Shown: in pieces, positions 25,902-40,829 of the stretch | Layout: every line of letters starts with the position of its first letter | Position numbering within the stretch: position 1 is the stretch's first letter | Virus record (IMG/VR): IMGVR_UViG_3300007639_000002 | Location: 15,144-79,143 of that record | Reading direction: 5' to 3' (one strand) | DNA length: 64,000 nt | Source of the DNA: a virus | The notes under the pieces: model-generated | The model's database searches: none | What the model was told of the DNA's origin: nothing | Seen by the model: only the letters and a program-made list of their open reading frames with translations | Made by a program: the position numbers and the translations under genes

Positions 25902-25906
25902 AACTA

Positions 25907-26596
25907 CTAGTATTCTTCTCTTTCGCCTACATGCTTAAGAAGTTGCTCTGTCTCTGGGTTATAAGTGTACCTTTGAAAACCATGCTCTTCGGTTGGGTGG
26001 CCCAAATTAGTGTAATGCTCAACATTAATAAGGTTAGAAAAAGGAGGTAATGGAGCAGTCAATATTTTCATGCTTTCACCAAGGTTTTTAAGTCTTCCCT
26101 CTGCATGCCAGTTACTGGTGTCAATTTTATTATGTGTTGCTAAATGTTCATGAATATCTTTAACTGTTTTATTAGTCATGTCGGGGTGTGGTGCCCATAC
26201 ACCGTTTGTATTAAAAGCGCCACCGCCGTTTTTATAGTTTATTTCAAAAAACCTGTCATGACCAGTGCCCTCTTCGTCATGTCTTTCATACCCAAGTTCT
26301 AGTGGAATCATTGCGTCAACCGCACGAGAGTGGTATCCAGTTTTAATATTACGACCAGTAGTAATACTGGAAACAAGTGGGCTTTCTGATTGCAATACGT
26401 TTGAGTCTAAATGTTCAGTACCCCAACCACCACCACCACCATGATAGTCTTTAAGGCTCAATGTATGTCCCAGCGCCATGCCATACTTTTTTCCATCAAT
26501 GTGTGCTGTTTTAGGGTCTGTTAAAACATCATGACCCATATTGGAAGCATGGCGTAGTGCTTTTTGAACTCGGGTAATGTCAAGGTAATTGTCCAT
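25907..26596 (-). CDS. Hypothetical protein
   Basis: 229 aa; TAAACT-N7-ATG start. Confidence 0.6.
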   Translation of the reverse strand: MDNYLDITRVQKALRHASNMGHDVLTDPKTAHIDGKKYGMALGHTLSLKDYHGGGGGWGTEHLDSNVLQSESPLVSSITTGRNIKTGYHSRAVDAMIPLELGYERHDEEGTGHDRFFEINYKNGGGAFNTNGVWAPHPDMTNKTVKDIHEHLATHNKIDTSNWHAEGRLKNLGESMKILTAPLPPFSNLINVEHYTNLGHPTEEHGFQRYTYNPETEQLLKHVGEREEY

Positions 26597-26601
26597 GTCT
26601 A

Positions 26602-26889
26602 CTAGTTTACGTTAAACCCACGTTGAATGCCCTGAGACTTTTGAAACTTTCCTAGGGCAAGGGACTGGCGCATTTTCTGTGTAGCAGGTGGGCAACCATG
26701 GCGACCAGAGCAGGTGCTGGACGCAGTATAAGGATTCCCTCTATCGTCAAAGTGCAGGTGCCCCGGCTTTAACTCAGGAGTTCCGTCTTTACGAGTGTAC
26801 TCTTGGTCTAACTCAGGCTGTAGAGATACTTCCCAAGCCCAGTCATGGTGCTCTTGTGGAATGAACTGTGGACCATCAGGTGCGGGCAT
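26602..26889 (-). CDS. Hypothetical protein
   Basis: 95 aa; TAAACT-N7-ATG start. Confidence 0.55.
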   Translation of the reverse strand: MPAPDGPQFIPQEHHDWAWEVSLQPELDQEYTRKDGTPELKPGHLHFDDRGNPYTASSTCSGRHGCPPATQKMRQSLALGKFQKSQGIQRGFNVN

Positions 26890-26899
26890 ATCTACTAGT

Positions 26900-27538
26900 T
26901 TACTTTACATTTACAATCTTGTAGTCGTAAGCGTTGTCGTCAGAGGTAAGCCACTTGCTACCGTCCTCAACACCCCATACCTTATCGCTTACTAGTCGCT
27001 CAATGAGCGTTTCACCCTTTTTGGTTGTATGAGAGGGGTCCCATAGTTTTATTCTATTGTTTGGCTGGATTGCAAAGTTGCCGTCTTCTCGCTCAATAAC
27101 GTGCCCACACTTGTGGTTAGCGGAGTCTTCTGAGTAGTTTGTGTTCGGGATGTTGTTGTCGGGGTGGTGCCAGTCAAGAGTAAACAGGTAAGAGCCGTTT
27201 ACGTCCTTCTTATGCCTGTCAATGTACGTGACAGACCTGCCACGCATGTGCTCAAATGTCGTTACTGCTATATAAGGGGAGAAGCAGTTCCACATGACTA
27301 AATCATGGATATCCACTTCAGGGCTGTCTTCTCGCATGCAGAACGCATTTATTGGTGCTCTCCACCAAACTCCCCCGTCTTCCATCAAGAAGTGGAACAC
27401 AGGCGCTCTATCCGTTACTGAGGCGACTCCAAAGATAACAACTGGGAACTTTAAGTCATGACTGTCCTCTTGGTTCCGAAGGAAGTTGCCTCTAACAAAA
27501 CAGTGAACTGGAGGAACATTGGCGTTAAGTTCAGGCAT
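26900..27538 (-). CDS. Phage hypothetical protein
   Basis: 212 aa; LNANVPP, YLFTLDW, FAIQPNNR. Confidence 0.65.
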   Translation of the reverse strand: MPELNANVPPVHCFVRGNFLRNQEDSHDLKFPVVIFGVASVTDRAPVFHFLMEDGGVWWRAPINAFCMREDSPEVDIHDLVMWNCFSPYIAVTTFEHMRGRSVTYIDRHKKDVNGSYLFTLDWHHPDNNIPNTNYSEDSANHKCGHVIEREDGNFAIQPNNRIKLWDPSHTTKKGETLIERLVSDKVWGVEDGSKWLTSDDNAYDYKIVNVK

Positions 27539-27547
27539 GCATGAAGT

Positions 27548-27862
27548 TTACTCTATATGCTTTAGCATGTACGGGTGAATGTCGTGCGTGAGCACATTAC
27601 CATGAGATTCTGTCCATCCCCAAGGCGCAGAGTCAGGAAGTTCTACGGAGAACACTTCGTCGCCGTATTCTTTAGCGGTATTAAGGTCTTCAGTAAGGTA
27701 CACGCCTGTAGGATGCCCCGAGTCTTCATACCCCTCTGGAAACTGGTCACTATCAGCAGCAGGGTTATTTGCTTTTAAGCCGTGCTCTTTAATTGACTCC
27801 ACGTTATGCGCCCCTGTACCGTGGTAATAAGTACGAAACTGATGTGGATTAAGGGAAGCCAT
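27548..27862 (-). CDS. ADP-ribosyltransferase-fold protein (H-Y type)
   Basis: YYHGT...SIKEHGL...GVYLT...AKEYG. Confidence 0.6.
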   Translation of the reverse strand: MASLNPHQFRTYYHGTGAHNVESIKEHGLKANNPAADSDQFPEGYEDSGHPTGVYLTEDLNTAKEYGDEVFSVELPDSAPWGWTESHGNVLTHDIHPYMLKHIE

Positions 27863-27905
27863 CTATTTAGTTTACTCTACTACCGAAGATTTTTTAGCCG
27901 TCTAC

Positions 27906-28478
27906 TCAATCCCTGCCCCAAGGACCAGTTTCAACGTCCTTGTTCCTAAGCCCTAAGTAGTCCACTTGGTCGGGGTTAACCAGATGTTTAGGCAACATAT
28001 AAGAAACAGAGCCTTTATCCTCAAACTGGTTAAGGTATGGCACTACTTTATTACCACGCCCCACATCTTCAACGGGCTTTACGGTTGTCTCCCACAAACT
28101 TCTTTGCTGTGGTCCATGTATGTTTTCGTTGTCTTGGGGATTAAAGGAATAGGCAGAATCTGAATCCATGTGTACTTCGTCAAGCATTGTTTTTGGAACC
28201 TTGTAGACATGGTGCCACGAACTTCTTCCAGCCCTAGTACGGGCTGCGCCCAGTGTGCCAAGGTGGATTACGTCGTTGGACTGGTTAGACGAGAAGGGAC
28301 TAGAACCTAATTCTAGTAAATGCAAATCAGGATGGTCTTGAGTATGCGGGGGGACTGGGCTGCTACTTGCGTGGTACGCCAAGACATGTGTGCGTGGTCT
28401 TACCTGAACAGGTGTTTCTTGAGGTGTGGGGCGGGCAACGTTCCCAAATAAATCTAAATTGAGATGGTCTGCTGACAT
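27906..28478 (-). CDS. Possible divergent ART-fold protein
   Basis: AYHASS...IHLGTLGAA...YLNQFED.GSVSY. Confidence 0.35.
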   Translation of the reverse strand: MSADHLNLDLFGNVARPTPQETPVQVRPRTHVLAYHASSSPVPPHTQDHPDLHLLELGSSPFSSNQSNDVIHLGTLGAARTRAGRSSWHHVYKVPKTMLDEVHMDSDSAYSFNPQDNENIHGPQQRSLWETTVKPVEDVGRGNKVVPYLNQFEDKGSVSYMLPKHLVNPDQVDYLGLRNKDVETGPWGRD

Positions 28479-28496
28479 CTAACTAGTTTACTATGC

Positions 28497-29480
28497 CTAA
28501 TCAAAGAGATTGAGTTGTTCTGGTTGTTTTTTAGCAGGAGCAGGCTCATTTTCCATATTTTCAAAATGGTGCCCCGTGGCTTTTTTAAAAGTATAATTGC
28601 GGGTTTGAACAAAAGTATCCCGTGCTTCAGGATCATTAAATAATTCTGGTTTATACCCATAACCGGGGCGAGTGCCTGCATCACTGCCTAAATTTCTTAT
28701 AAGTCTTCCAAATTCCCCACCAGCAGCGTCTTGGTCACGCCTTTTCTGACCACGTGTAACACGGGCATGCGCCAAACGATAACCTTCTGCAACTCCTTCG
28801 GCACGTGGTAATACCAGTGAACCCATTGGATTAGTTGTAGTTGCGTTGTAGGTATGCCCTGCGGGGTCTTTTTGTGCTTTGATACGCTCACTATGGAATT
28901 TAAGTGGGTTTTGGTTAGCATCTAAAGCATGCCCAACTTCGTGCAATAAAGTAGTTTGGATGTTTGTAGACGTTGGACCCGTTTGAGACATGCCAATATG
29001 ATAAGGCTCTTCGTCTGGAATAGTTAACTTAACTTCATGATTGATAGGAACATACGATGGATTGTCGTCACCTTTAGATACAGAAACTTGTAATTGACCT
29101 TCTGGGCGGTGTAATTTCTTTAAATCTGAAATTGGTGCCGTAGAACGTGCAAGACCTTCTGTGACAAGAGATTTTGCTATTTTGTCACTTGCTGGGATTA
29201 TTTTATCATGCAGCAGCATGGAATTACGAATGCCAGACGCAGGGTTTGACATGTCACGCACATACTCTGGATGAAGGTTAGGAGAACCATTAACATCAAA
29301 ATGCATGTTGTTAATGGCTTCAATACGCTTAGGATTGTAACCTTTAGGCCATACGTGCTCATGGAACAGTTTTAACTGCCCGCCCCTGCCTACAGGGTGT
29401 TGTTGACCCTCTTTAACCTCTGTGAACTTCTCTGCATGGGCAACTGGTACAGGGGGAGGTATTTTTCTAGAGGATGCCAT
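28497..29480 (-). CDS. HExxH zinc metallopeptidase-like protein
   Basis: TLLHEVGHALD, downstream EGVAE, QLKLF and C-terminal QLNLF. Confidence 0.55.
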   Translation of the reverse strand: MASSRKIPPPVPVAHAEKFTEVKEGQQHPVGRGGQLKLFHEHVWPKGYNPKRIEAINNMHFDVNGSPNLHPEYVRDMSNPASGIRNSMLLHDKIIPASDKIAKSLVTEGLARSTAPISDLKKLHRPEGQLQVSVSKGDDNPSYVPINHEVKLTIPDEEPYHIGMSQTGPTSTNIQTTLLHEVGHALDANQNPLKFHSERIKAQKDPAGHTYNATTTNPMGSLVLPRAEGVAEGYRLAHARVTRGQKRRDQDAAGGEFGRLIRNLGSDAGTRPGYGYKPELFNDPEARDTFVQTRNYTFKKATGHHFENMENEPAPAKKQPEQLNLFD

Positions 29481-29524
29481 ACGTCTAGTTTACATGTATA
29501 CAACAGGTATACAAGTTCAATACA

Positions 29525-29540
29525 TGTTCCACGTGGAACA
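29525..29540. promoter_or_regulatory. parS-like site 1
   Basis: Perfect palindrome TGTTCCACGTGGAACA. Confidence 0.75.
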
Positions 29541-29842: not shown

Positions 29843-30020
29843 ATACCTAGTATAGGGCTATCTAGGCGTTGTTTTTTGGTTAGCGGATTTTTGGAATAGG
29901 GCTATTGGGCCACTGGGCTGCTAGAGGGGGGTGGGTCCTGCCGGGCCACCCAGTAGTAGCGGCGACTTAACCATGGGGGGTATCCACAGTATAGCACCGC
30001 TACCTTACTGGTCACGAATC

Positions 30021-30215
30021 CTAGGCGAGTAACAACTCCCTGTGCTTCCGAGCCACTTCCATGTCTAACAGGTTCACCAGTGCATGAGCCAGTACGTCGT
30101 ACTCGGCTTCACGCCCTGCTAAGACTGCGCCAATATCATCCACCATTGTCTGCATCACATCTACCAATGCGACTGCTGTAACCATTTGCTTGCTGAGTTG
30201 TTTTGTTGTTGTCAT
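30021..30215 (-). CDS. Cassette ORF, hypothetical (MTTTKQ)
   Basis: Leaderless ATG 6 nt after TAAGGT; TAG lies inside the repeat. Confidence 0.7.
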   Translation of the reverse strand: MTTTKQLSKQMVTAVALVDVMQTMVDDIGAVLAGREAEYDVLAHALVNLLDMEVARKHRELLLA

Positions 30216-30254
30216 ACTGCCACCTTACCATGTCCCTGCTGGGAGTCACGATTC

Positions 30255-30446
30255 CTAGATTTCCTCTTCCCAGTCTGAGTTCAGGCGCTCCAATGCCCGC
30301 AGTTCCTCCGCCACATCAAATGCAGTAGCGCATGGTGTGCAGAAGTATAACTCAGTGAGCCACCTGTCCGAGTACATAGGCTCGTGCGTTGGGCTAGGTA
30401 TTGGAGCGTTGCATTCAACGCAGGTGTTTTGTGTTGTCGTTGTCAT
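30255..30446 (-). CDS. Cassette ORF, CxxC...CxxC zinc-finger protein
   Basis: CVEC and CTPC; leaderless start. Confidence 0.7.
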   Translation of the reverse strand: MTTTTQNTCVECNAPIPSPTHEPMYSDRWLTELYFCTPCATAFDVAEELRALERLNSDWEEEI

Positions 30447-30490
30447 GCTTCCAACCTATCACATGACCCTCTCAGGTCACGATTCCTACA

Positions 30491-30511
30491 TAATGAGAAT
30501 GATTCTCAACT
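30491..30511. promoter_or_regulatory. Fur/Zur-family-like box
   Basis: 7-1-7 palindrome TGAGAAT-G-ATTCTCA (30494-30508). Confidence 0.4.
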
Positions 30512-30513
30512 AA

Positions 30514-30529
30514 TGTTCCACGTGGAACA
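30514..30529. promoter_or_regulatory. parS-like site 2
   Basis: TGTTCCACGTGGAACA. Confidence 0.75.
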
Positions 30530-30549
30530 TTCCTAGAGTTGGGGCTATA

Positions 30550-30565
30550 TGTTCCACGTGGAACA
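30550..30565. promoter_or_regulatory. parS-like site 3
   Basis: TGTTCCACGTGGAACA. Confidence 0.75.
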
Positions 30566-30623
30566 TTGGTGCGGAGCGTAGGCAGGTATCCACCTACCCA
30601 CACCCACCCAGCCATTGCTGGCA

Positions 30624-30785
30624 CTACTTGGGAGCACATGATGCCCAGTGCTCCAATGCCCACTCTGCCCATGCGTTATGATCCAATGCCCACATATCCA
30701 GCGTGACAGTCTCGTCACAATAAACGCAGTGAGCGTTCAAGTACTGTGGGCATTCCATGTCGTTGATGTTCTGTGTTGTTGTCAT
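30624..30785 (-). CDS. Cassette ORF, 53 aa Cys/Trp-rich
   Basis: Hand-translated MTTTQNINDMECPQYLNAHCVYC...WASCAPK; below the ORF-track cutoff. Confidence 0.6.
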   Translation of the reverse strand: MTTTQNINDMECPQYLNAHCVYCDETVTLDMWALDHNAWAEWALEHWASCAPK

Positions 30786-30824
30786 GTAACCAACCTATCA
30801 TCTAGTGGCTCTGAGTCACGATTC

Positions 30825-30992
30825 CTAGTCCCTGTATTCTTGGGCGTTGTTGTAGTGATATAGAGCCATGGCGTACTGTTGCTTTTTCAGGTCTGCGTAT
30901 TTGCAAACCTCTGCCCTGTCTGCGTATTTCTTGGACAATCCCATGTAGTAGTCGTATTGCTCTTTATTGGTAAATTGTTTTGTTGTTGTCAT
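30825..30992 (-). CDS. Cassette ORF, 55 aa
   Basis: MTTTKQFTNKEQYDYY...; TAG inside the repeat. Confidence 0.65.
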   Translation of the reverse strand: MTTTKQFTNKEQYDYYMGLSKKYADRAEVCKYADLKKQQYAMALYHYNNAQEYRD

Positions 30993-31031
30993 GTCTCCAA
31001 CCTATCACGCCACCCACGTGAGTGACGAATC

Positions 31032-31226
31032 CTAGATAAATATATTCTGATACTCATTTTGCGCATAGTACTCAGTGCGTAACCTTTCAGCACTGTTCAT
31101 GAACCTACCCTCAGCCCGTGTTAGACCATAGGTGTACTCATGTGCCTTTAATGCATTCATCAGGTCTTCCAAAGCCTGCATTATTTTGATCTCAGTATCT
31201 GATAGTTGCTGTTGCGTTGTTGTCAT
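31032..31226 (-). CDS. Cassette ORF, hypothetical
   Basis: MTTTQQ; leaderless start; TAG inside the repeat. Confidence 0.7.
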   Translation of the reverse strand: MTTTQQQLSDTEIKIMQALEDLMNALKAHEYTYGLTRAEGRFMNSAERLRTEYYAQNEYQNIFI

Positions 31227-31265
31227 GCTTCCACCTTACCCTAGGGTCACCTTTGGTGACGATTC

Positions 31266-31433
31266 CTAGAACCTTGTATCTGTCACTGGGCGAACCTGCA
31301 TATCCCTATGGCTGAGCCAATAGACGTTGCAGGCTTGGCGACTGCCGACCATGACTACACACTTACGTGAAGAGTCATAGACTTCATGTGCTTTAGTGCT
31401 GGGCTTTACCTTTTTCATTTGCGTTGTTGTCAT
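31266..31433 (-). CDS. Cassette ORF, 55 aa basic protein
   Basis: MTTTQMKKVKPSTK...; TAG inside the repeat. Confidence 0.6.
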   Translation of the reverse strand: MTTTQMKKVKPSTKAHEVYDSSRKCVVMVGSRQACNVYWLSHRDMQVRPVTDTRF

Positions 31434-31472
31434 ATCCACACCTTATCAGGTCACCCTGCTGGGTCACGAATC

Positions 31473-31721
31473 CTACTTCAGCATTGCTTTCAGTTCAGCC
31501 TTCACCACACGTGCCGTGTCTCCACGCCATGCAGATGCATTGCTGAGGAAATAGGCGACGATATCCCTAGCGGAGTCGTACCCATATGAGCCACTGATAG
31601 AGTCCAGCGAACGCATAGCGTCTAGGTACGGCACAGCACCAAAGTATGGCTTTTTCCAGTCTGCACTAATGTCACGTGCAATGGTTGATATTGGGCGATG
31701 TTGTTGTTTTGTTGTTGTCAT
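31473..31721 (-). CDS. Cassette ORF, phage hypothetical protein
   Basis: RPISTIA..I..DW...YFGAVPYLDAM...WRG..AR.VKAELK. Confidence 0.7.
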   Translation of the reverse strand: MTTTKQQHRPISTIARDISADWKKPYFGAVPYLDAMRSLDSISGSYGYDSARDIVAYFLSNASAWRGDTARVVKAELKAMLK

Positions 31722-31760
31722 GTAATTACCTTATCAGTTAGTCGGGTTAGGTCACGAATC

Positions 31761-31970
31761 CTAGATGTTATGTCCATCTAGTTCAGTTATTTTGGCGATT
31801 GCCAAAGATAGTACAGGCTTCAGCCCTAAGAGGAACATCCACACGCCGATCATCTCAGTGCGTAGTTCATCATCCTTTAGGGCATCTTCCACGGCAGTGT
31901 TCCATTCACCGAGCCTGCCCAGTACTTCTAATGTTGATGGTAGTGGTTTGGTTGTTGTTGTCGTTGTCAT
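31761..31970 (-). CDS. Cassette ORF, hypothetical
   Basis: Leaderless ATG at 31970 (TAAGGT-N6). Confidence 0.65.
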   Translation of the reverse strand: MTTTTTTKPLPSTLEVLGRLGEWNTAVEDALKDDELRTEMIGVWMFLLGLKPVLSLAIAKITELDGHNI

Positions 31971-31979
31971 GTTCACACC

Positions 31980-32171
31980 TTACCAGCCTGCTGGCTCTAG
32001 TGACGATTCCTGATGCTCTTCTACTAGGTTGTCGTAGCACCATGTGCATACGTCAGTTCCCCAGTCTTCAGGGTCAAATCCATTATGCCCATCCACGATA
32101 GGGATCAGCATAGAAGATGCTCCACACCGTTCGCAGGCTCCGATATAAATGTTGTTGTTGTTGTCGTTCAT
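31980..32171 (-). CDS. Cassette ORF, zinc-finger-like
   Basis: CERC and CTWC; reads through the repeat and stops in the next -10 box. Confidence 0.6.
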   Translation of the reverse strand: MNDNNNNIYIGACERCGASSMLIPIVDGHNGFDPEDWGTDVCTWCYDNLVEEHQESSLEPAGW

Positions 32172-32210
32172 GTAATCACCTTACCACCTAGGAGCGTTAG
32201 GTCACGAATC

Positions 32211-32444
32211 CTAGATACCTTTCATATCGCAGATGTAATTGTGGCGAGCGTCAAAGTACCAGTCAGACTCTTGAAAGGCTTGCTCGTCGCTGGGCGTTCC
32301 ATCCTGTGCATATGCCATGAACTCTGCCCAGTTATCTAGGTAGTCGTCAGAGCCAATGTAGGACTCTTCCCATTCTTCTATATCTTCAGGTGTTACGACT
32401 AATTTAGCCGATTCCATGTCTTCCACAGATGTGTATGTGAACAC
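32211..32444 (-). CDS. Cassette ORF, very acidic protein
   Basis: Leader AACAACGACAACAACGGAGG and GTG start; D/E-rich. Confidence 0.65.
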   Translation of the reverse strand: MFTYTSVEDMESAKLVVTPEDIEEWEESYIGSDDYLDNWAEFMAYAQDGTPSDEQAFQESDWYFDARHNYICDMKGI

Positions 32445-32503
32445 TATGTGCCTCCGTTGTTGTCGTTGTTGATAGTTCTAACTTAGCACGTCACCCTGCT
32501 GGG

Positions 32504-32683
32504 TCACGAATCCTGCCGTGTGTCCATGTTCCACAGAATGCACTTAGCATCTTTTAAGATGTTGTATAGATTCATCTCTTCCCATGTCATGCCATAGTAC
32601 CCATCACGCTGGGTCAAATCAGCCATGAACATAGTAAGCGTTTCATACATTTCAGTGTTGGTTATTTTCTTTGCTGTTTTCAT
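32504..32683 (-). CDS. Cassette ORF, 59 aa
   Basis: MKTAKKITNTEMYET...; stops at the TGA within TCGTGAC. Confidence 0.6.
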   Translation of the reverse strand: MKTAKKITNTEMYETLTMFMADLTQRDGYYGMTWEEMNLYNILKDAKCILWNMDTRQDS

Positions 32684-32722
32684 ATCTTCACCTTACCATG
32701 TAGTCGGGTTGAGTCACGATTC

Positions 32723-32799
32723 CTAGTGGGTATATTTGGTTAGATTAGCCTCAATATACCAGTGAGGTGCTTTCCCCGCTAACCATGCGGGTTTTCGTT
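32723..32799 (-). ncRNA. Candidate double-pseudoknot RNA cassette
   Basis: Own cassette promoter, no credible ORF; both hairpin loops are complementary to consecutive segments of the 3' tail. Confidence 0.6.
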
Positions 32800-32838
32800 A
32801 ATCCCAACTTACCATGATGGAGTGTTGGGTTACGATTC

Positions 32839-32907
32839 CTAATAAAGGATGGCATTCAATGCCTTAGGAGGTGTCATGAATGCCACCCTCTATTAGTTGT
32901 CGTCGTT
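32839..32907 (-). ncRNA. Candidate hairpin sRNA with anti-SD loop
   Basis: Own cassette promoter; 20 bp stem with two G-U pairs; loop contains CACCUCCU. Confidence 0.6.
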
Positions 32908-32946
32908 AATCCCAACCTACCACGTGGGTAGGCTGGGTCACGATTC

Positions 32947-33372
32947 CTAGAGGCTGATATGCGCTCCTGAGAGCAAGTCTTCAACCTCATTGCGGATGGT
33001 GTCGCTGATGCTGTCACTGAAAGATGAGTTATCAGTGAAATCGTATTCATGGAGGATGTCGTTAATGCGATCCTCCAAAGCATCTACTACTTGGTTCATT
33101 ACCTTGTCACTGATTGCATTGACAAGTTGATTAAGCAATTCTTCCATGGTCATGTTGTTAGTGCCTTTCGTTGTTGTTGATGAGTTCACTTTATCAGGTG
33201 GTTGTACTGAGTCACGATTCCTAGACTCCATGGCGATTTGCTCTTCATGATACTCACGTAATAACTCTACGGTATAGTTCATGTAGATACCCTTTGCCAT
33301 GGCATCTTCTACTTCAGTCTTTGCCATTAGTAAATGGAACACTTTAAGTTGTTGTTGCGTTTCGTTGTTCAT
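32947..33372 (-). CDS. Two cassette ORFs fused in frame (second start at 33153)
   Basis: Repeat and promoter at 33211 lie inside the ORF; internal AAAGG-N-ATG. Confidence 0.6.
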   Translation of the reverse strand: MNNETQQQLKVFHLLMAKTEVEDAMAKGIYMNYTVELLREYHEEQIAMESRNRDSVQPPDKVNSSTTTKGTNNMTMEELLNQLVNAISDKVMNQVVDALEDRINDILHEYDFTDNSSFSDSISDTIRNEVEDLLSGAHISL

Positions 33373-33411
33373 GTAAGCACCTTATCAGGTGACATTGTTA
33401 GGTCACGATTC

Positions 33412-33639
33412 CTAGCGAATCTCTACAACCCTGCCTAAGCAAGTGAGTAAGTTGCCTACGCTCGTAGTGGTTTCCCCTGCCGTGGTGGTGATAACTGCAT
33501 CATCACCCACTACTTCTACAGAGATAACCCTTGTAATGATTGGGCGTGAGACAGGTGTCCATGATGGAATGACGATAAACTCGCCTTCTATAATTTGGTC
33601 AGCCCGTACTGTGAATGCTGGTTGTTGTTTCGTTGTCAT
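33412..33639 (-). CDS. Cassette ORF, hypothetical beta-rich protein
   Basis: MTTKQQ; leaderless start. Confidence 0.65.
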   Translation of the reverse strand: MTTKQQPAFTVRADQIIEGEFIVIPSWTPVSRPIITRVISVEVVGDDAVITTTAGETTTSVGNLLTCLGRVVEIR

Positions 33640-33678
33640 GGTTTCACCTTATCATGTTGAGTTGGTAGGTCACGAATC

Positions 33679-33990
33679 CTAGTATGACCTGAACACGTAA
33701 CCATCAAGTTCCCACACGTCACCACCTAGTTCTAGGTCACGTGCGAATGACTCATAGTCAAAGTATCCAGTTTTGACTGCTTCAGAAAAGATATCGTCTG
33801 CCAACTCTTCAGCGTACTCACGTACTGATGTGACTGCTACGTAGGCATCCTCAAATGCTGATACTTCGCTGTCGTAGTCTTTGGTTATGCCAAGGTTCCA
33901 GCAGTAGATGGCAAAGGCTTGCTCGTCTATGTTGTTGTCTTCTGCTACCTGTGCAATTTCTGCGTTGCTGTATTTATGTGTTGTTTCCAT
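33679..33990 (-). CDS. ardA: ArdA-like antirestriction protein (C-terminal domains)
   Basis: FEDAY...EYAEEL...YFDYESFARDLELGGDVWELDGYVFRSY; acidic. Confidence 0.75.
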   Translation of the reverse strand: METTHKYSNAEIAQVAEDNNIDEQAFAIYCWNLGITKDYDSEVSAFEDAYVAVTSVREYAEELADDIFSEAVKTGYFDYESFARDLELGGDVWELDGYVFRSY

Positions 33991-34029
33991 ACCTGTACCT
34001 TACCCTCTAGTAGTTGTTAGTCACGAATC

Positions 34030-34215
34030 CTAGAACGATGTTCCTACCAGCGCATTATCAAATGTGCGATAGATTACAATGCTCCTAGTTTGGTCTATAG
34101 ATTCCCACATGGATGCCAACCACGTTGGCAGGTGTGCATCATGCAGTGTGCGTATGTACGTTTGGGGGTCACCCTCTAGTTGATATTGTACTTCTACTTT
34201 TTTCGTTGTTGTCAT
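34030..34215 (-). CDS. Cassette ORF, hypothetical
   Basis: MTTTKK; leaderless start. Confidence 0.65.
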   Translation of the reverse strand: MTTTKKVEVQYQLEGDPQTYIRTLHDAHLPTWLASMWESIDQTRSIVIYRTFDNALVGTSF

Positions 34216-34254
34216 GGTTTCACCTTAGCATTCTGAGTTAGTGGGTCACGAATC

Positions 34255-34509
34255 CTACAACTCAAAAGAATGCAGTATCTTAGACGTTTCGTCTTGTGAA
34301 TGTTTATTGGATGTCCAAAAGTGAACCTCTGTACGTGTGTAGATACCACCATGGCACACCATGCCTAGGCGATTACGTGCTTCTTTTTCTGCACGTTCTT
34401 CATTGTCGTAGTCTGCACCACCTACGTAGTCTTCGTTGTTGTCCCAAAAGTGTACTGTGTACCCTGAAGCAATATCTTGATTCATGTTGTTGCCTTTCGT
34501 TGTTGTCAT
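34255..34509 (-). CDS. Cassette ORF, hypothetical
   Basis: MTTTKGNNM: leaderless ATG plus an internal SD-led ATG. Confidence 0.65.
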   Translation of the reverse strand: MTTTKGNNMNQDIASGYTVHFWDNNEDYVGGADYDNEERAEKEARNRLGMVCHGGIYTRTEVHFWTSNKHSQDETSKILHSFEL

Positions 34510-34539
34510 GTAATCAACTTACCACGTGGTGGTGTTAGG

Positions 34540-34905
34540 TCACGAATGCAGTTCCCGCATTTTGACCAACCCAACCTGATAATTGGCGGTATTGGTCAAG
34601 TTAAGCCACCAGCCAGTGACGAATCCATTTTCGTATTCGTCACAGATATGCTCGTTGTATTCGCCATGCTCGGTGAGAAGATCACCCAGTAGTTCGTTGA
34701 TGGATTCCCCTGCCCATTCACCTGATAGTGGTGATGGTGGCATGAAATCGTCGGGGAGATCACACTCGTCATATAGGCGAAGGAACTCTACATATGTTTC
34801 CTGCGTAGTGTTACCGTCAAAGATCCATGATGATGCATTCTTGCCAGCAACTAATCCACGAATGTATGCATCATATGCATCAGTTGTTTTGGTTGTTGTG
34901 TCCAT
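34540..34905 (-). CDS. Cassette ORF, acidic hypothetical
   Basis: PSPLSGEWAGES motif; D/E-rich. Confidence 0.65.
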   Translation of the reverse strand: MDTTTKTTDAYDAYIRGLVAGKNASSWIFDGNTTQETYVEFLRLYDECDLPDDFMPPSPLSGEWAGESINELLGDLLTEHGEYNEHICDEYENGFVTGWWLNLTNTANYQVGLVKMRELHS

Positions 34906-34914
34906 GTGAGTACC

Positions 34915-35139
34915 TTACCCTGCCTTGATGTCCAGTGACGAATCCTGCCATACTTCTTTGTCTTCTTTAAGTTTGTATGCCCATTTGTATGCTGTGTTCA
35001 TTGCTGTCCACATTTGGCTGTATGGGGAATTGAATGAGTCTTCTTGATGAGCGTGTAAGTTGTAGCACACTGATTCCAGTGCATCTATCGCATTAAATAG
35101 TTCTTCAAGTGTCATGTCTTCGTTGATGTCGTGTTTCAT
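34915..35139 (-). CDS. Cassette ORF, hypothetical
   Basis: Leaderless; stops in the next -10 box. Confidence 0.6.
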   Translation of the reverse strand: MKHDINEDMTLEELFNAIDALESVCYNLHAHQEDSFNSPYSQMWTAMNTAYKWAYKLKEDKEVWQDSSLDIKAG

Positions 35140-35178
35140 GTTGTCACCTTATCATTTTGTTGTTGGTAGTCACGAATC

Positions 35179-35688
35179 CTATCCATACACCACCTCACCA
35201 AAGAGAATGAATTGCAGAATGGAGTCTGCTGTGAGAGCGTCGTACCAACCATCAAAGGCATCATCATCGTTGAAATAGATGGCACGTAAGCATTGCAACG
35301 CAGTCTTACCCAGTTGTCCATGGTCAGGTACGTTCTCCTGTGAGAACTCACCTGTGCCTACCTTGACGATAAAATCTATAACCATTTGCTCGTTGATAGG
35401 GTAAGCCTTGCCATAGGTGAACCATTCATCCCAGTCGTTTATTCCTTCTTGAAAACCATGTTCTTTGTTGGCATACAGTGGGTGGGTTTTGTCCACCTCT
35501 GTTACTTCTTCTTCTACGTAGATGGTTGCGCTACAGTACTGATCAGTGTTACCCAATTCGTACTCTCCGTTTGCACTTCCCCATTTGTAGTTCTTGCGAA
35601 TCGCCCAGTACCCACATCCTAGTTCCAAAGCATCTGTAAGAATTGTGCAGGCTCCGTATGTCATTTGTTGTTTATTTGCTGTTGTCAT
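35179..35688 (-). CDS. Cassette ORF, acidic phage protein
   Basis: G.GYWA and C-terminal DA.TAD.ILQ..LFGEVVYG. Confidence 0.7.
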   Translation of the reverse strand: MTTANKQQMTYGACTILTDALELGCGYWAIRKNYKWGSANGEYELGNTDQYCSATIYVEEEVTEVDKTHPLYANKEHGFQEGINDWDEWFTYGKAYPINEQMVIDFIVKVGTGEFSQENVPDHGQLGKTALQCLRAIYFNDDDAFDGWYDALTADSILQFILFGEVVYG

Positions 35689-35727
35689 GTCATCAACTTA
35701 TCAGGTGAGTGTGCTGAGTCACGAATC

Positions 35728-36186
35728 CTACCAACTACTTTGATAGGAGAACTGGTACTCTTCGTCAAGAGACAGCGCATTTTTAATGATGGAAATTGAG
35801 TACTCTAGGCTCTCAAAGTACCACTCGTCGTACTCAATGTTGCCAAAGAAGAAACCACTAGCGGTGGGTAACAGGTCATCGGCAAGGCTATGGTCACCTA
35901 GAACCTGTTCGCAGACGTTCATTAACTCCGCAAGTTTCTCACGTGACACGTATGCATCTTGGCATTCATCTACGCCATCCTGTACGTTGTCCACGAACCA
36001 CTGGTGGATGGCGTTGGCTTTACGCCAGTAGCCCACCATGCACCGTACTGTGATAGATGGATAGTCAGTGTCTAGTTCAATGTCTAATACTTTCCTGACT
36101 GCATGGTACGCTTCATTAACGTCGTCACCGTAGTGTGATGCTGGTGAGAGGTAGCGTTCTGCTTTGAGGTACTGATCTAATCCCAT
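35728..36186 (-). CDS. Phage hypothetical protein (MGLD...YWRKANAIHQWF type)
   Basis: Recognisable motifs including LLPT.SGFFFG and YQSSW; SD AAGGA. Confidence 0.7.
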   Translation of the reverse strand: MGLDQYLKAERYLSPASHYGDDVNEAYHAVRKVLDIELDTDYPSITVRCMVGYWRKANAIHQWFVDNVQDGVDECQDAYVSREKLAELMNVCEQVLGDHSLADDLLPTASGFFFGNIEYDEWYFESLEYSISIIKNALSLDEEYQFSYQSSW

Positions 36187-36259
36187 GTTGTTATCCTTTT
36201 GTTGTTGGTTGTTGTTACTGAAGTTACTTTATCATGTTGTTGTTATGAGTGGCGAATCC

Positions 36260-36332
36260 TGTGGAATACACCGATTTCTACGACTAGGGGAAACAACAAC
36301 GAAACCCTAGGAGCAAACCGATGTACTCCACA
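36260..36332 (-). ncRNA. Candidate long hairpin RNA with a loop antisense to cassette 5' ends
   Basis: Stem GUGGAGUACAUCGGUUU/AAAUCGGUGUAUUCCAC with G-U pairs on the minus strand; inner stem CUAGGG/CCCUAG; loop UUUCGUUGUUGUUUC. Confidence 0.55.
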
Positions 36333-36336
36333 TGAC

Positions 36337-36531
36337 TCACCACTCATGTTCTTGTATAGATAATATCAGCACTAATGCGTTAAACATCAACAATATGCTA
36401 AGAAAACCTAAGAGCAAATTACCTGTATTTTCCATACCACCCATGAACCCAATGCTCAGGATGATAAGAGGCAGAATACAGCGTTTCTTTGTACGTGTCC
36501 AGCGATACCAGTTGGTCACCCTGATCCTCAT
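36337..36531 (-). CDS. Small two-TM membrane protein
   Basis: ATGA-coupled to the upstream ORF. Confidence 0.55.
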   Translation of the reverse strand: MRIRVTNWYRWTRTKKRCILPLIILSIGFMGGMENTGNLLLGFLSILLMFNALVLILSIQEHEW

Positions 36532-36776
36532 AACTCTTCCCCGTTTTCGTCAGTGAAGATCAGGTCAGAGATATCTGTCTGATGACCCCAGCCACATGAA
36601 AAATCATCAGTCTTGGCAAGATGTTCAATGTGCTGAACAACATCGTCTAACGTGATGTCCATGTCTTCATCTATGTCACTATTGAGAGTCCTGATGTCTT
36701 TGATTACGTCGTACACGTCATAAGTTATTACTTTTGTAACGTTGATGTACTTGGGTAGTTCTGTTGTTTCGTTCAT
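36528..36776 (-). CDS. Cassette ORF, acidic hypothetical
   Basis: Leaderless ATG at 36776. Confidence 0.65.
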   Translation of the reverse strand: MNETTELPKYINVTKVITYDVYDVIKDIRTLNSDIDEDMDITLDDVVQHIEHLAKTDDFSCGWGHQTDISDLIFTDENGEEL

Positions 36777-36815
36777 ATCCATACCTTATCTTGTTGTTAG
36801 TGTTAGTCACGAATC

Positions 36816-37217
36816 CTAGATATTGGCTTCCCAGTCAATATCAGAGTCATAAATGTCAATGCCAAAACGTGAGTCCCAACGCCATACTTCCTCAAAGGCA
36901 ACGGTATCTGCACGAACCATTACCCTGCCACGAATGAAACCCTCTTCAGGATTAGTCTCGTCTGCGTTCCATTGTTTCACGTACTCACCTACACACTCGT
37001 ACACGTAGCCCTGTAGGGCATCTACGTGCTGTGGGTTATCTAAACACCATGTGTTTTCTATCACGTCTACGAGCATCCCCATGACCATTAGTTTTGGGTT
37101 GCTTTCGCACATATTTATGATGCGATTGAGCATACGCTCTATTTCGCTTGCTGGTAATACACCATCCCAGTACGCCATGGTTTCTTGCTCGTAGTACAAG
37201 CCTTCACAGCCATCCAT
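36816..37217 (-). CDS. Acidic hypothetical protein
   Basis: TAG inside the repeat. Confidence 0.6.
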   Translation of the reverse strand: MDGCEGLYYEQETMAYWDGVLPASEIERMLNRIINMCESNPKLMVMGMLVDVIENTWCLDNPQHVDALQGYVYECVGEYVKQWNADETNPEEGFIRGRVMVRADTVAFEEVWRWDSRFGIDIYDSDIDWEANI

Positions 37218-37666
37218 TATGCTTCCAAATCTTCTAGTGGGTACAACACCTTACGTGCGTACACTTCTTCAATAGCGTCAAGAAGAACCTCATGGTAGTT
37301 GCTCCATGCTTTTTCATTGGAAATAGCAAACGCTGAAATAATCTCTAGTGTTTCTTTATCAACATCAAAAGCCCATACAACAGAGTCTTTGATATCGGGA
37401 TCGGGAGTACCCCAATGAACTTCTAATTCTTCACGAATAGAGGCAGGTGAGTAACAAACGCTGTTGCTGTAGTTCACGTCACCCCATCCTGTATGGTCAC
37501 CCATAAACTTCAATGAGATGCCATGCTTACGTGCAATGTTAGATATTTCTTCGTCAGAAAATGCTTCTAAGGCTGACTCTTCTGATGTAAGGTCATCAGT
37601 ATCAACGATATAGCAGTTGTCTGCATTAACAATAGTTCCTGATTGTGCGTCAATAAGTAATTTCAT
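37217..37666 (-). CDS. Cassette ORF, acidic hypothetical
   Basis: TAAGGT-N6-ATG. Confidence 0.65.
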   Translation of the reverse strand: MKLLIDAQSGTIVNADNCYIVDTDDLTSEESALEAFSDEEISNIARKHGISLKFMGDHTGWGDVNYSNSVCYSPASIREELEVHWGTPDPDIKDSVVWAFDVDKETLEIISAFAISNEKAWSNYHEVLLDAIEEVYARKVLYPLEDLEA

Positions 37667-37682
37667 AGTTGTACCTTAGCCT

Positions 37683-37925
37683 TCAGAGGCTGTTACTCAC
37701 GAATCCTAGTTTGTCAAGGATAGCGTCACGTACCCATTCAATATCAGGACAAATCTCACATACATCGTACTGATTGCATATTTCTGCCCATGCATCTTTG
37801 GTAAGTACTTCATAATCATCATCGTCATAAAGGCTTGATGCCCATTCGTATGAGTAGATGTCACAACAGATGTCGTCGTCATCTTTTAAGTTTGCGATAA
37901 TCTCTTTTAAGGTTGATACCTTCAT
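37683..37925 (-). CDS. Acidic hypothetical protein
   Basis: SD GAGGA; D-rich. Confidence 0.6.
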   Translation of the reverse strand: MKVSTLKEIIANLKDDDDICCDIYSYEWASSLYDDDDYEVLTKDAWAEICNQYDVCEICPDIEWVRDAILDKLGFVSNSL

Positions 37926-38062
37926 GTTGTTTCCTCTATTAGTTTTTCTAGTTTGTTAATGAGTTCTAGCATTTCATCTGTCAATGGACTGCACCACGTT
38001 GTCTTAACGTTACGTAGTTCTGTCAATAGCAGGTGTAAGCCAAAATCTAATTGCTGTGTCAT
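37922..38062 (-). CDS. 46 aa hypothetical protein
   Basis: Hand-translated MTQQLDFGLHLLL...; ATGA-coupled at both ends. Confidence 0.5.
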   Translation of the reverse strand: MTQQLDFGLHLLLTELRNVKTTWCSPLTDEMLELINKLEKLIEETT

Positions 38063-38340
38063 TGTGTTACCTCTACATTCACTATATTATGAACAGAGCC
38101 TGAGTCACGAATCCTAGAGAACGTGCTACCTTTTGTCGGGTCTGTGCGGATGAAATAGAATGAGTCTGCCCACTGATGGATATCGTCGGCAATGTCTTCA
38201 TTCATGGCGACTACCTGCCCATGCTCATGGTCAATATAGACTGCCAGTTCACCGTCTTCTGTTATATACAATCCGATATACCAATCGCCCATCATTATCT
38301 GTGCGGAGTTATCGGTTTGCTCAATGTAGTTGTTACTCAT
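38059..38340 (-). CDS. Hypothetical protein
   Basis: Reads through the repeat at 38104. Confidence 0.55.
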   Translation of the reverse strand: MSNNYIEQTDNSAQIMMGDWYIGLYITEDGELAVYIDHEHGQVVAMNEDIADDIHQWADSFYFIRTDPTKGSTFSRIRDSGSVHNIVNVEVTQ

Positions 38341-38582
38341 AAACAGAACCCATTACAACGTGGGAATCCGCAGGCTGGGCAGTAAGACTCTTCTTCTTCT
38401 TCTTCTTCGTCTTTTGTGATGCCAAAGATGGTATAACCAGCCTCAACCAAAAGGTCAGCAACTAGGTCTAATGACTCACCATCGGTGTACTCGTACTCTA
38501 GGTCTTTGGGATTAGAACCTTCAACACGCTTTTCTAAGATGTTGATGATTTCTTGAATGAGTTCGTCGTTTGCTGTTGTCAT
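38337..38582 (-). CDS. Cassette ORF, acidic protein with C-terminal Cys cluster
   Basis: MTTAND; poly-E; CPACGFPRCNGFC. Confidence 0.65.
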   Translation of the reverse strand: MTTANDELIQEIINILEKRVEGSNPKDLEYEYTDGESLDLVADLLVEAGYTIFGITKDEEEEEEESYCPACGFPRCNGFCL

Positions 38583-38591
38583 ATCATCAAC

Positions 38592-38873
38592 TTACCATAC
38601 TGGTGGTGCTAGGTCAGGATTCCTGAGAGAAGAGGTATTTGGGATTACGTCACAGTTCATTAAATAAATGGCGTTGCTGAGTAGTGATGAAAGTTCATCT
38701 TCATTGTCAATGTACTCCCCGTCACCAAGATAAGCAACAGACCATTCATGTGTGTCGTTGTGCTGTACTGTGCCGTCAGAGAAATGCTCTTCCTCAGCGT
38801 TAGTATCCCATTCCCACTTGTTGGTGGATGAATCGTATGAGACTATGAAATAGTGTGTATGGTTTCCGTTCAT
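38592..38873 (-). CDS. Acidic hypothetical protein
   Basis: Start at MNGNH (ATGA coupling, GAGG SD). Confidence 0.55.
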   Translation of the reverse strand: MNGNHTHYFIVSYDSSTNKWEWDTNAEEEHFSDGTVQHNDTHEWSVAYLGDGEYIDNEDELSSLLSNAIYLMNCDVIPNTSSLRNPDLAPPVW

Positions 38874-39031
38874 TGTGTTACTTCCTCTATGTCTGTTGTG
38901 TTCCATGTTTCTTGCTCGTCTACACACCATGACTCGTTGCTGTCAAAGAGTTGTTTAGCCTGTTCAATGCTGTCGGCATCTACTTCGTGGCGGTAGTGAG
39001 TTACTTTTTCGTATGTGAGTGTGTACTTCAT
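38870..39031 (-). CDS. DpnD/PcfM-like small protein
   Basis: MKYTLTYEKV...EVDADSIEQA. Confidence 0.45.
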   Translation of the reverse strand: MKYTLTYEKVTHYRHEVDADSIEQAKQLFDSNESWCVDEQETWNTTDIEEVTQ

Positions 39032-39222
39032 GCTGGTTCTTCCTCTTCTACATCTTCTACATCCCATGGAGTGTTCCACTCACGAAAGCCCCACATATCT
39101 TTTGACTCTAAATCGTCATCTGTGAACTTATCGTAAGCCTCTAGCGCACCCTCTTCTGAGTCTGCTTTAATTTCGTAGCAGTGGCTAATTACTTCATCTA
39201 CACGTACTAAATAAGTTTTCAT
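39028..39222 (-). CDS. DpnD/PcfM-like small protein
   Basis: MKTYLVRVDEV...EIKADSEEGA. Confidence 0.5.
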   Translation of the reverse strand: MKTYLVRVDEVISHCYEIKADSEEGALEAYDKFTDDDLESKDMWGFREWNTPWDVEDVEEEEPA

Positions 39223-39282
39223 GTTGTTCCTTTCGTTGTCGTTATTTACAACTTACCATTAGAAGTGTGTTGGTCACGAATC

Positions 39283-39702
39283 CTACGTAGCGTCACTCAT
39301 GACGAATGCCGATACACAAGCCTGCTCGTACTCTTCTGCATTGCGTACCCCATAGAAGAAATGGTCACCAGCACCTGTAGTAATCTCTGCCCACGTCATC
39401 AGTGAGTCTGTTGTGATGTCTCCATTGTCTAGGATCACTGTTCCCCACATAGCGTCGGCAACAGACATGACGTACTCTTTAATGTTTTCAGCCATATCAA
39501 AATGATCTACGTAGTCAATACGCCACCTGCCTTCACAGGGGAACCCACTCTCTAGGTCTACTGGCTCATTCTCATTGGCAGGTATAAACCCCACAAGTGT
39601 AATGTCATCTACATTCTCCACCAGCATTGCTAGGCGGTCATACTTTTGGTTAGAGTCCGATGGCACTACGCACCTCTTCTTCGCAGGCTTCACGTGCTTC
39701 AA
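39283..39702 (-). CDS. Acidic hypothetical protein (start uncertain)
   Basis: TAG inside the repeat; 5' end overlaps the neighbouring gene. Confidence 0.55.
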   Translation of the reverse strand: MKHVKPAKKRCVVPSDSNQKYDRLAMLVENVDDITLVGFIPANENEPVDLESGFPCEGRWRIDYVDHFDMAENIKEYVMSVADAMWGTVILDNGDITTDSLMTWAEITTGAGDHFFYGVRNAEEYEQACVSAFVMSDAT

Positions 39703-40249
39703 TGTATGCGTTGTCTACACGCTCCCACATGGTGTCCATGTCAGTATCCTCAAAACTACCCTCTACCGTGATGTTCTCTGTGAACGAAGAATGCCATTGA
39801 CCGTCATGGTATGAACTAGCACCTGCAAAGCCCATGCCCTGCTCGTCATAAGACAAAACAAACTTAAAGTTTGGATACAACGTAGAGATATGCTCAAAAG
39901 CCTTTTCGGGTGGTGCCCATGCTGAGTTGAAGTAAAACGAACGGTAGCCGATGTCTTCGCCACCCATCTCAGTATCGTAATCACCCCACTTGGTTCCCCA
40001 GTTGTCACAACACCAGTCGTACCAATCCTTGTGACCGTACTTGGCGATGTTCGCCTCTTGTTGTATGCGATGCTCTTCTGCTTTATCTGCACCCATGAAG
40101 CCTGCCACTGTCTCGTATAGTTCTGTAGGGCAAGGGTAAAGAGAACGTATGATCTTTATACGCCCGTCTACTGTGATGTCTTCTACAAACTTCTGTAGTG
40201 CTAATTCGTTACCCCATACGTAGAGGTTATTACTGCAATCGTTAGGCAT
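39650..40249 (-). CDS. DUF1281/YubB ferredoxin-like protein
   Basis: MPN.C.N, WYDWCCDNWGTKW, F.SAWAPP, Y.E.GMGFAG. Confidence 0.75.
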   Translation of the reverse strand: MPNDCSNNLYVWGNELALQKFVEDITVDGRIKIIRSLYPCPTELYETVAGFMGADKAEEHRIQQEANIAKYGHKDWYDWCCDNWGTKWGDYDTEMGGEDIGYRSFYFNSAWAPPEKAFEHISTLYPNFKFVLSYDEQGMGFAGASSYHDGQWHSSFTENITVEGSFEDTDMDTMWERVDNAYIEAREACEEEVRSAIGL

Positions 40250-40583: not shown

Positions 40584-40622
40584 ATATGCACCTTATCATT
40601 GAGAGTGGTTGAGTCACGAATC

Positions 40623-40829
40623 CTATTGCTGTTCAATAAGAAAAGATGGGCGTTCAATAGTTGAGTGAGTACCCTCTACGACTGTGATGCCGTAGTGAAC
40701 TTCACCCCAACCTAAAATGTCTGTAGGGTCATTGCCTAACAATGCTTCGTACACAAGGTCTTGTGCCTGCATTTCGTTCTTGGCTTTGACAAAGTATGTT
40801 CCTGTTGCTGTTACTGTGTAGTAGTTCAT
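40623..40829 (-). CDS. Cassette ORF, DpnD/PcfM-like
   Basis: MNYYTVT...VKAKNEMQA. Confidence 0.5.
   Translation of the reverse strand: MNYYTVTATGTYFVKAKNEMQAQDLVYEALLGNDPTDILGWGEVHYGITVVEGTHSTIERPSFLIEQQ

Follow-up and report, generated by a model that had tools for sequence, protein, structure and literature searches.

Within the early promoter array of an uncultured lake phage, one cassette consists of a single long hairpin, which we call H1. The structure of H1 is certain. A 20-bp stem closes a large loop that contains an anti-Shine-Dalgarno-like (anti-SD-like) motif, and the hairpin stands directly behind a promoter of the array. From its sequence, we tentatively propose that H1 is a small early hairpin RNA that pairs with ribosome-binding sites, a reading to which we assign a probability of roughly one in three (about 0.35). 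As such an RNA, it would more likely be a targeted damper than a global shut-off.

The window, i.e., the whole stretch of 64,000 nucleotides that was analysed, comprises bases 15144-79143 of a 79-kb IMG/VR virus contig that is about 86% complete and has a G+C content of 45%. Its minus strand encodes structural and replication genes, including a terminase, a family A DNA polymerase and an SNF2 helicase, and between 1 and 40.8 kb genes are found on the minus strand only. Searches with megablast and blastn against GenBank phages yielded no DNA match in the phage collection, and the helicase was less than 32% identical to that of any phage among the matches listed. ARAGORN called no tRNA or tmRNA in the window.

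From 30.0 to 40.9 kb, TAGGAWTCGTGAC-N17-(TGn)TAAGGT-N6-A is repeated in tandem about 29 times on the minus strand of the window. This array spans approximately 11 kb and about 30 tiny early-gene cassettes. This motif has 32 matches in the window, while 1.1 would be expected by chance. In 21 of the 29 copies, the A after the -10 box is the start of an ATG, which indicates leaderless messages. The TAG of the repeat is the stop codon of the preceding small gene in most copies. At 40859-40882, two repeats form a back-to-back palindrome, and two to three opposite-facing copies lie beyond it. One of the cassette proteins resembles ArdA-type anti-restriction proteins, so the array is likely an early host-takeover and anti-defence region.

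In every cassette (window 30000-41000, minus strand), the -10 box and the base after it read UAAGGUG and lie 5-6 nt in front of the ATG. In read-through transcripts this would serve as a Shine-Dalgarno (SD) site, so that one gene could give a leaderless message from its own promoter and SD-led messages from promoters further upstream. TAGGATT, the spacing, TAAGGT and the leaderless ATG are kept in related phages, namely L036/L029 (G001), L032, L034, L030, L031 and L033. The 3' half of the repeat varies by lineage in these phages (CGTGAC, CGYCAC, TGGACA and TGGATG), which suggests that a lineage-specific factor reads the repeat.

Table 1. Features in and around the hairpin cassette (window coordinates).
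Feature	Position	Strand	Remarks
Array repeat TAGGAATCGTGAC	32937..32949	-	Perfect copy; -35-side element of the cassette promoter
-10 box TAGGTT with upstream TGn	32914..32919	-	17-nt spacer from the repeat; spacer ends TGg
Stem-loop H0 (CCCAGCCUACC / GGUAGGUUGGG)	32911..32937	-	11 bp, one G-U; spans spacer and -10 box
5' tail AACGACGACAA	32897..32907	-	11 nt, AAC-rich
Hairpin H1	32839..32896	-	20-bp stem and 18-nt loop
H1 5' arm CUAAUAGAGGGUGGCAUUCA	32896-32877	-	
H1 loop UGACACCUCCUAAGGCAU	32876-32859	-	18 nt
H1 3' arm UGAAUGCCAUCCUUUAUUAG	32858-32839	-	
Anti-SD-like CACCUCCU in H1 loop	32866..32873	-	Plus strand reads AGGAGGTG, then TC, ATG
SD-like GAGGGUGG in H1 5' arm	32883..32890	-	5 nt before minus-strand AUG; stem-paired
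Micro-ORF MTPPKALNAILY	32839..32877	-	Candidate; 12 codons, stop is the TAG of the next repeat
Micro-ORF MNATLY	32876..32896	+	6 codons; AGGAGGTG-TC-ATG start
Next array promoter TAGGAATCGTAAC	32799..32841	-	-10 TAAGTT, +1 at 32799; abuts H1 3' arm
Double-pseudoknot RNA	32726..32792	-	Next cassette after H1, non-coding; not part of H1
Long hairpin	36250-36345	-	-57 kcal/mol over 106 nt; 3' arm covers degenerate repeat CAGGATTCGCCAC

A first-pass annotation of the window, made from the sequence alone, had placed a promoter here with its motif at 32937, a TAGGTT hexamer and a predicted +1 near 32907, and both the sequence and the array-wide geometry agree with this. The promoter has the geometry of 29 array copies (Table 1), and its predicted +1 is the A at 32907, 6 nt past the -10 box, a position derived from the fixed geometry of the array. 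The hexamer TAGGTT also drives the leaderless genes at 31034, 30827 and 30488, and the TAG of the repeat is the stop codon of the upstream 68-aa gene. Three SD-led cassettes (39285, 33223 and 32515) have leaders with the same AAC-rich start as this 5' tail. We rejected a tmRNA-like reading of AAC GAC GAC AAC UAA UAG, as such an AAC-rich run is found at every cassette 5' end.

Overlooked in the annotation was a second stem-loop, H0, just upstream of H1, which exists only in read-through RNA. At -23.3 kcal/mol it is the strongest of the 29 promoter regions (others -2 to -14 kcal/mol). The second strongest promoter-embedded stem-loop is that of the next cassette (-14.0 kcal/mol), and the remainder range from -2 to -11 kcal/mol. 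The two strongest thus belong to exactly the two non-coding cassettes, and these predicted folds fit a role in which promoter stem-loops would insulate RNAs that need a defined 5' end from read-through.

Folded as a minus-strand RNA, H1 reaches -36.6 kcal/mol (z of -6.73, none of 200 shuffles as stable), and its plus-strand fold reaches -32.7 kcal/mol. It ranks in the top six for stability among the 70-nt minus-strand windows across all 64 kb (mean -13.3, sd 4.8 kcal/mol), and its sequence is unique in its own genome. Sequence and folds agree with the annotated stem of 20 bp, in which both imperfect pairs (arm positions 7 and 11) are G-U on the minus strand and A-C on the plus strand. That both G-U pairs favour a minus-strand RNA also stands, but the argument that they fix the orientation is weak, as we estimate a probability of about 0.06-0.1 for this pattern under neutrality. 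With 20 bp, the helix has the approximately two uninterrupted turns expected of an RNase III site. An intrinsic terminator, with a short loop and a U tract, is absent from the H1 3' end: UUUAUU lies inside the stem and GAAUCGUAAC follows after it. No Rfam family matched H1 at the gathering threshold or at E-values up to 10, where just meaningless matches to miRNA hairpins were seen; the RF01066 (6C) covariance model likewise had no match at either level.

An anti-SD match of at least 8 nt in a random 18-nt loop with the composition of the H1 loop has a probability of about 2e-4, and CCUCC one of about 0.7%. On the minus strand of the 11-kb array, CCTCC occurs just twice. The loop had been described as displaying an anti-SD sequence. 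While CACCUCCU is indeed located in the 18-nt loop, its first CCU is predicted to pair with AGG within that loop (unpaired probability of 0.06-0.19), so three of eight anti-SD bases would be engaged in pairing and the word "displaying" is only partly right. The further statement that the loop is the exact antisense of an SD plus AUG is correct, but it is the same fact as the plus-strand AGGAGGTG-TC-ATG. Since CATG is its own reverse complement, the loop site also yields a minus-strand ATG. It opens a 12-codon candidate micro-ORF that was missed when the cassette (32949-32839) was called non-coding; the cassette does lack an ordinary gene and has the hairpin as its sole content.

The predicted pairing of the H1 loop with a full SD is -14 to -15 kcal/mol. 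With typical 5-nt SDs it is -6 to -9 kcal/mol, with half of the core sequestered, and only 5-6 nt can pair with the SDs on which the phage itself relies. The phage has SD-led late genes and, in the array, several SD-led cassette genes, with AGGAG, GGAGG, GAGGT or AAAGG sites. Throughout the whole phage genome, no start site had extended complementarity to the H1 loop, and the best sense-strand matches fell off ribosome sites. The 5' ends of leaderless cassettes had a mean predicted pairing of -2.2 kcal/mol with the loop, compared to a background of -5.9 kcal/mol. At the sequence level, this supports the earlier expectation that the loop would spare leaderless early mRNAs.

Other large hairpins are found in and near the array. 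The loop of the 36250-36345 hairpin, UUUCGUUGUUGUUUC, is antisense to the 5' ends of cassette mRNAs, 25 of 29 of which pair at -10 kcal/mol or lower, compared to 23% in the background. Its G001 counterpart combines an unrelated stem with a similar loop, GUUCGUUGCC...CGUUGUUGU (L036 ~7775-7845, minus strand), and the counterpart locus in L012, a close relative, is at ~4236-4300 (plus strand). The SD-led gene behind the 36250-36345 hairpin does not have its own promoter, so this hairpin is no full terminator. A further large hairpin is located at a cassette border at 30480-30640. The hairpin at ~43935-43980, which lies just past the end of the plus-strand operon and faces minus-strand genes, has a long stem without a U tract.

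The cassette after H1 contains a double-pseudoknot RNA that is kept in three phages: in the window, at L036:2571-2636 (minus strand) and at L037:4598-4668 (plus strand), the latter an otherwise unrelated phage contig. Its 23 pairs are all formed in the three sequences, and eight of them are compensatory, with both sides changed. No Rfam model matched this RNA. Its core had 56 matches in genome contigs, which is about the chance number, and none of these had the full structure. We rejected the pseudoknot RNA as the leader of a conserved gene, since the downstream genes are unrelated, and H1 as its conserved 5' domain, since that domain differs in all three phages. Because the pseudoknot cassette is non-coding, H1 forms part of a two-cassette, 225-nt non-coding RNA island, and because it holds a conserved structured RNA, the array does use cassettes to make RNAs. 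The promoters at 32841 and 32949 are paralogues with 76% identity over the variable part (mean 49%), tied second among 406 promoter pairs with one pair higher. In L037, the pseudoknot RNA is followed by a tRNA-like piece (L037:4669-4790, plus strand) with a T arm AUAGGUUCGAAUCCUAU and then CACACCCACC. This piece weakly matches the tmRNA model (E-value of 0.33) and was not called by ARAGORN.

Promoter scans identified three close relatives, L010, L012 and L023 (98%, 90% and 99.8% identity), with the remaining matches being chance. All three contigs end outside 32839-32949, and L012 stops 420 nt short. A scan of the IMG/VR and JGI metagenomes for the cassette-leader pattern yielded no match, and no relative covering H1 was found in GenBank phages with megablast or blastn. 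Scans with the two flanking small proteins identified no true relative, and two promoter-variant scans returned further contig ends only. A helicase scan identified G001 and four further lineages, none of which had an H1 counterpart. G001, with a helicase that is 81% identical and a G+C content of 52%, has a like array of about 36 cassettes. H1 would be expected there after the homologue of the upstream gene, and the G001 contig ends 22 nt past the stop of that gene. Upstream of the pseudoknot RNA, neither G001 nor L037 has a recognisable H1 counterpart or a CCUCC loop. In G001, two other hairpins with loops GGGACAAAGUAGG and GUAGCCUUACAG precede the pseudoknot RNA in the same transcript, and in L037 only tiny hairpins do. 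There is also no CCUCC loop among the six most stable hairpins of the 14 kb of G001.

L012 carries an extra leadered 79-aa gene between two near-identical promoter copies (L012:7221-7562 versus window 33414-33364). This is direct evidence of cassette gain or loss through recombination at the repeats. Contig L098, which belongs to the G001 lineage, ends exactly at a promoter repeat. Near this end (L098:12490-12557, minus strand), a 23-bp perfect inverted repeat encloses the promoter repeat, with the spacer and -10 box as its 3' arm.

If H1 is a small RNA, host RNA polymerase would start at ~32907 on this non-coding cassette of the early array (32949-32839) and produce a short RNA with an 11-nt AAC-rich tail and the 20-bp hairpin, about 65-70 nt long provided that the stem marks where transcription or processing ends. 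RNA stability would come from this stem, and the large C/U-rich loop would be the working part. By pairing with purine-rich ribosome-binding sites, in the best case an SD plus AUG, the loop would lower SD-led translation, and leaderless early messages of the phage would offer it nothing to pair with. The loop might act on certain host mRNAs, on SD-led genes of the phage itself, or on read-through messages that use the -10 box UAAGGUG as an SD. A host start site reading AGGAGGUGUCAUG, if present, would be of special interest as a target of the loop.

Several observations speak for this small RNA. The cassette has a consensus promoter, the fixed +1 spacing and no other payload, and the stability of H1 is far beyond chance, with both imperfect pairs G-U on the transcribed strand. 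Its 18-nt loop is too large for a typical terminator and carries the improbable 8-nt anti-SD match. A structured-RNA cassette adjoins it, and the two non-coding cassettes have strong promoter stem-loops. The antisense loop of the 36250-36345 hairpin, with its G001 counterpart, would be a parallel, and the H1 loop is predicted to pair with a full SD and to avoid leaderless 5' ends. Against it, H1 has no canonical terminator, the CCU is paired in the loop, no extended phage target was found, only 5-6 nt pair with the SDs of the phage, no Rfam family matches, and upstream of the pseudoknot RNA G001 and L037 have neither a counterpart nor a CCUCC loop. The loop motif could also have arisen secondarily, from the Thr-Pro-Pro codons of the micro-ORF or from a ribosome site copied in inverted orientation. 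The weakest form of the small-RNA proposal is global takeover, which the first-pass annotation had proposed alongside action on one target. Here, the RNA would mimic the 16S rRNA 3' end, occupy SDs or a factor that reads them, and lower SD-led host translation while sparing about 20 leaderless phage messages. The 36250-36345 hairpin would later silence those, resulting in an RNA-only programme that sorts messages by initiation mode. We consider this programme highly improbable. The predicted pairing with 5-nt SDs, at just -6 to -9 kcal/mol, argues against general occlusion, and the phage's own SD-led genes would be affected too.

H1 could nearly as well be a purely cis-acting stem-loop, either a terminator or attenuator or an RNase III-type processing or 3'-protection site, with its own short RNA a by-product and its loop without a role. 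Such an element would stop or cut read-through from about 20 upstream promoters and so insulate the following RNA gene. This and the small RNA are close as readings. An uninterrupted 20-bp helix has a standard length for an RNase III substrate. H1 abuts the next promoter repeat, with its 3' arm ending in the TAG of that repeat, and the strongest embedded stem-loop, H0, is in the promoter just upstream. Hairpins also mark cassette borders at 36250-36345, at 30480-30640 and, as the 23-bp inverted repeat, at the end of L098, and the hairpin past the plus-strand operon likewise has a long stem without a U tract. In the T4-type phages RB49 and phi1, promoter-early stem-loops (PeSLs) of this layout combine repeated early promoters with stem-loops that stop transcription arriving from upstream, and genes are shuffled through the repeats (Arbiol et al. 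2010, PMC2839356). Shuffling at repeats is seen here in L012, with its extra gene between two copies of one promoter. However, an 18-nt loop and an absent U tract are poor for intrinsic termination, and the 36250-36345 hairpin can be ruled out as a full terminator. It would be unexplained why a promoter stands 12 nt in front of what is only a terminator, as would the improbable loop motif.

The micro-ORF on the minus strand could instead be the product, in a leadered cassette consisting of GAGGGUGG, an AUG and the 12 codons of MTPPKALNAILY. As the hairpin hides both the SD and the AUG, translation would only be co-transcriptional. Perhaps slowed at Pro-Pro-Lys, it would open the stem and adjust read-through, in the manner of leader-peptide attenuation. 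The AAC-rich leader of 30 nt (ATG at +30) matches the SD-led cassettes at 39285, 33223 and 32515 in length and composition. As also seen in 19 other cassettes, the frame ends at the TAG of the repeat that follows, but an in-frame TAG has a 1-in-3 chance. In prefix folds of the nascent RNA, GAGGGUGG pairs first with CACCUCC of the loop (-8.3 kcal/mol) and later with the 3' arm, when the 20-bp stem replaces this SD:loop hairpin. A small alternative hairpin, GGCAU-UGA-AUGCC followed by AUCCUUUAUU, scored as weakly terminator-like. Conversely, a stem of -32 kcal/mol over the SD and AUG should nearly abolish initiation, and attenuation would control little because the downstream RNA and gene have their own promoters. 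We regard an expressed micro-ORF as improbable. Equally improbable, in our judgement, is a functionless relic: a ribosome-site segment (CTAATARAGGRTGGCATTCA, read on either strand) would have been duplicated in inverted orientation, and an emptied cassette would tolerate the result. The duplication could stem from template switching or from recombination of two cassette starts in opposite orientation. For a relic speak the SD-like arm and ATG that can be read on either strand, the lack of a second copy of H1 in the genome and of any copy in the two further phages that have the pseudoknot RNA, the gain and loss of cassettes at repeats, and the palindrome at 40859-40882 with its back-to-back repeats. 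Both mismatches, however, keep pairing on the transcribed strand, and the stem is intact while the flanking promoter copies have diverged to 76% identity, which suggests maintenance. Finally, a plus-strand product is scarcely credible. The perfect 8-nt SD AGGAGGTG stands 2 nt before the ATG of MNATLY, but this ORF has six codons only, the stem has A-C mismatches on the plus strand, and the plus strand carries no genes between 1 and 40.8 kb. No plus-strand promoter is placed for it: the only promoter-like site nearby (32709-32736) meets a terminator-like site (32775-32791) before H1. This strand usage and the terminator-like site make the plus-strand micro-ORF very unlikely. As an intrinsic terminator in its own right, the 32775-32791 site was rejected, as it is not kept in G001.

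In how it would work, H1 most resembles either small RNAs with C-rich loops (6C, RsaE/RoxS) or PeSL stem-loops, and by sequence it is a member of neither. Like 6C/B11 of Actinobacteria (RF01066) and RsaE/RoxS of Firmicutes, it is a short stable stem-loop with a C-rich loop complementary to the SD. It differs in being phage-borne, in having one loop only, which is partly self-paired, and in lacking an Rfam model match. P22 sar and lambda OOP are short phage antisense RNAs against ribosome sites that act on the opposite-strand transcript of their own locus. They share with the proposed H1 RNA a length of about 70 nt, an own promoter, a terminal hairpin and complementarity to an SD/AUG region, whereas the strand opposite H1 has no credible gene. 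The RNase III sites of the T7 early region have internal loops and no promoter directly in front, and their cleavage leaves protective 3' stems. These sites are also long intercistronic hairpins in a tandem early transcription unit, whereas H1 has no internal loops and a promoter directly in front, and cleavage at H1 is putative. We found no description of a phage anti-SD RNA in the literature.

By analogy, we view the H1 cassette as a PeSL analogue rather than a member. The array has a repeated early promoter with adjacent or embedded stem-loops in a plastic region of small genes, and shuffling at the repeats is seen in L012. As with PeSLs, many copies of one strong early promoter lie among small genes of unknown function, the stop of the upstream gene is within the cassette, stem-loops occur within, before or after the promoter, and genes are gained or lost at the repeats. 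In contrast to PeSLs, the phage and its promoter sequence are unrelated, with no DNA match to T4-type PeSL sequences or phages in the phage collection. Most array genes are leaderless and most array repeats have no strong stem-loop. H1 itself stands apart as a 58-nt unit, located past the +1 and with a large loop, and its function as a terminator is putative.

Should the H1 loop indeed target ribosome-binding sites, the phage would separate SD-led from leaderless translation with a tiny RNA instead of a protein. The heavy dependence of some bacteria and phages on leaderless messages could then be approached directly. Under the ordinary, cis-acting reading, the array would represent a second, unrelated phage lineage that organises and shuffles its early genes by promoter-plus-stem-loop cassettes. 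Even then, a small non-coding RNA island would be marked inside an anti-defence and host-takeover region.

Further features were observed in and around the array. At 32947-33372 (minus strand), the leaderless ATG at 33372 opens a frame of 141 aa that does not stop at the promoter repeat at 33223, which it reads as ESRNRDS, and continues into the next gene; this represents either two fused genes or a lost stop. Six consecutive larger genes at 25900-29500 (minus strand) have no SD and share GTAAACT, or a sequence close to it, 6-7 nt upstream of the ATG, which may be another set of leaderless promoters. The last array promoter (29900-30023, minus strand; -10 TATACT) starts an RNA, ACCCCCCAUGGUUA..., that is G+C-rich and structured and contains no ORF. 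This 5' end is kept in L098 (L098:12053, minus strand). Linked to the same RNA is CAUGGUUAG, which recurs in loop 1 of the pseudoknot RNA. Three perfect TGTTCCACGTGGAACA palindromes, which are parS-like, are located at 30506-30575 and 29525-29540. Two of them are paired in a long hairpin, and the arrangement is also found in G001 (L036:290-500). Behind the helicase, the leadered mRNA of a DUF932 gene begins with a small 5' hairpin (window 42858-42880, plus strand; L032:6140; L030:2272; L031:2439). Its stem differs by lineage (AGAGGC/GCCUCU, GGGG/CCCC and GGGGU/ACCCC), and the hairpin is probably a 5'-end stabiliser.
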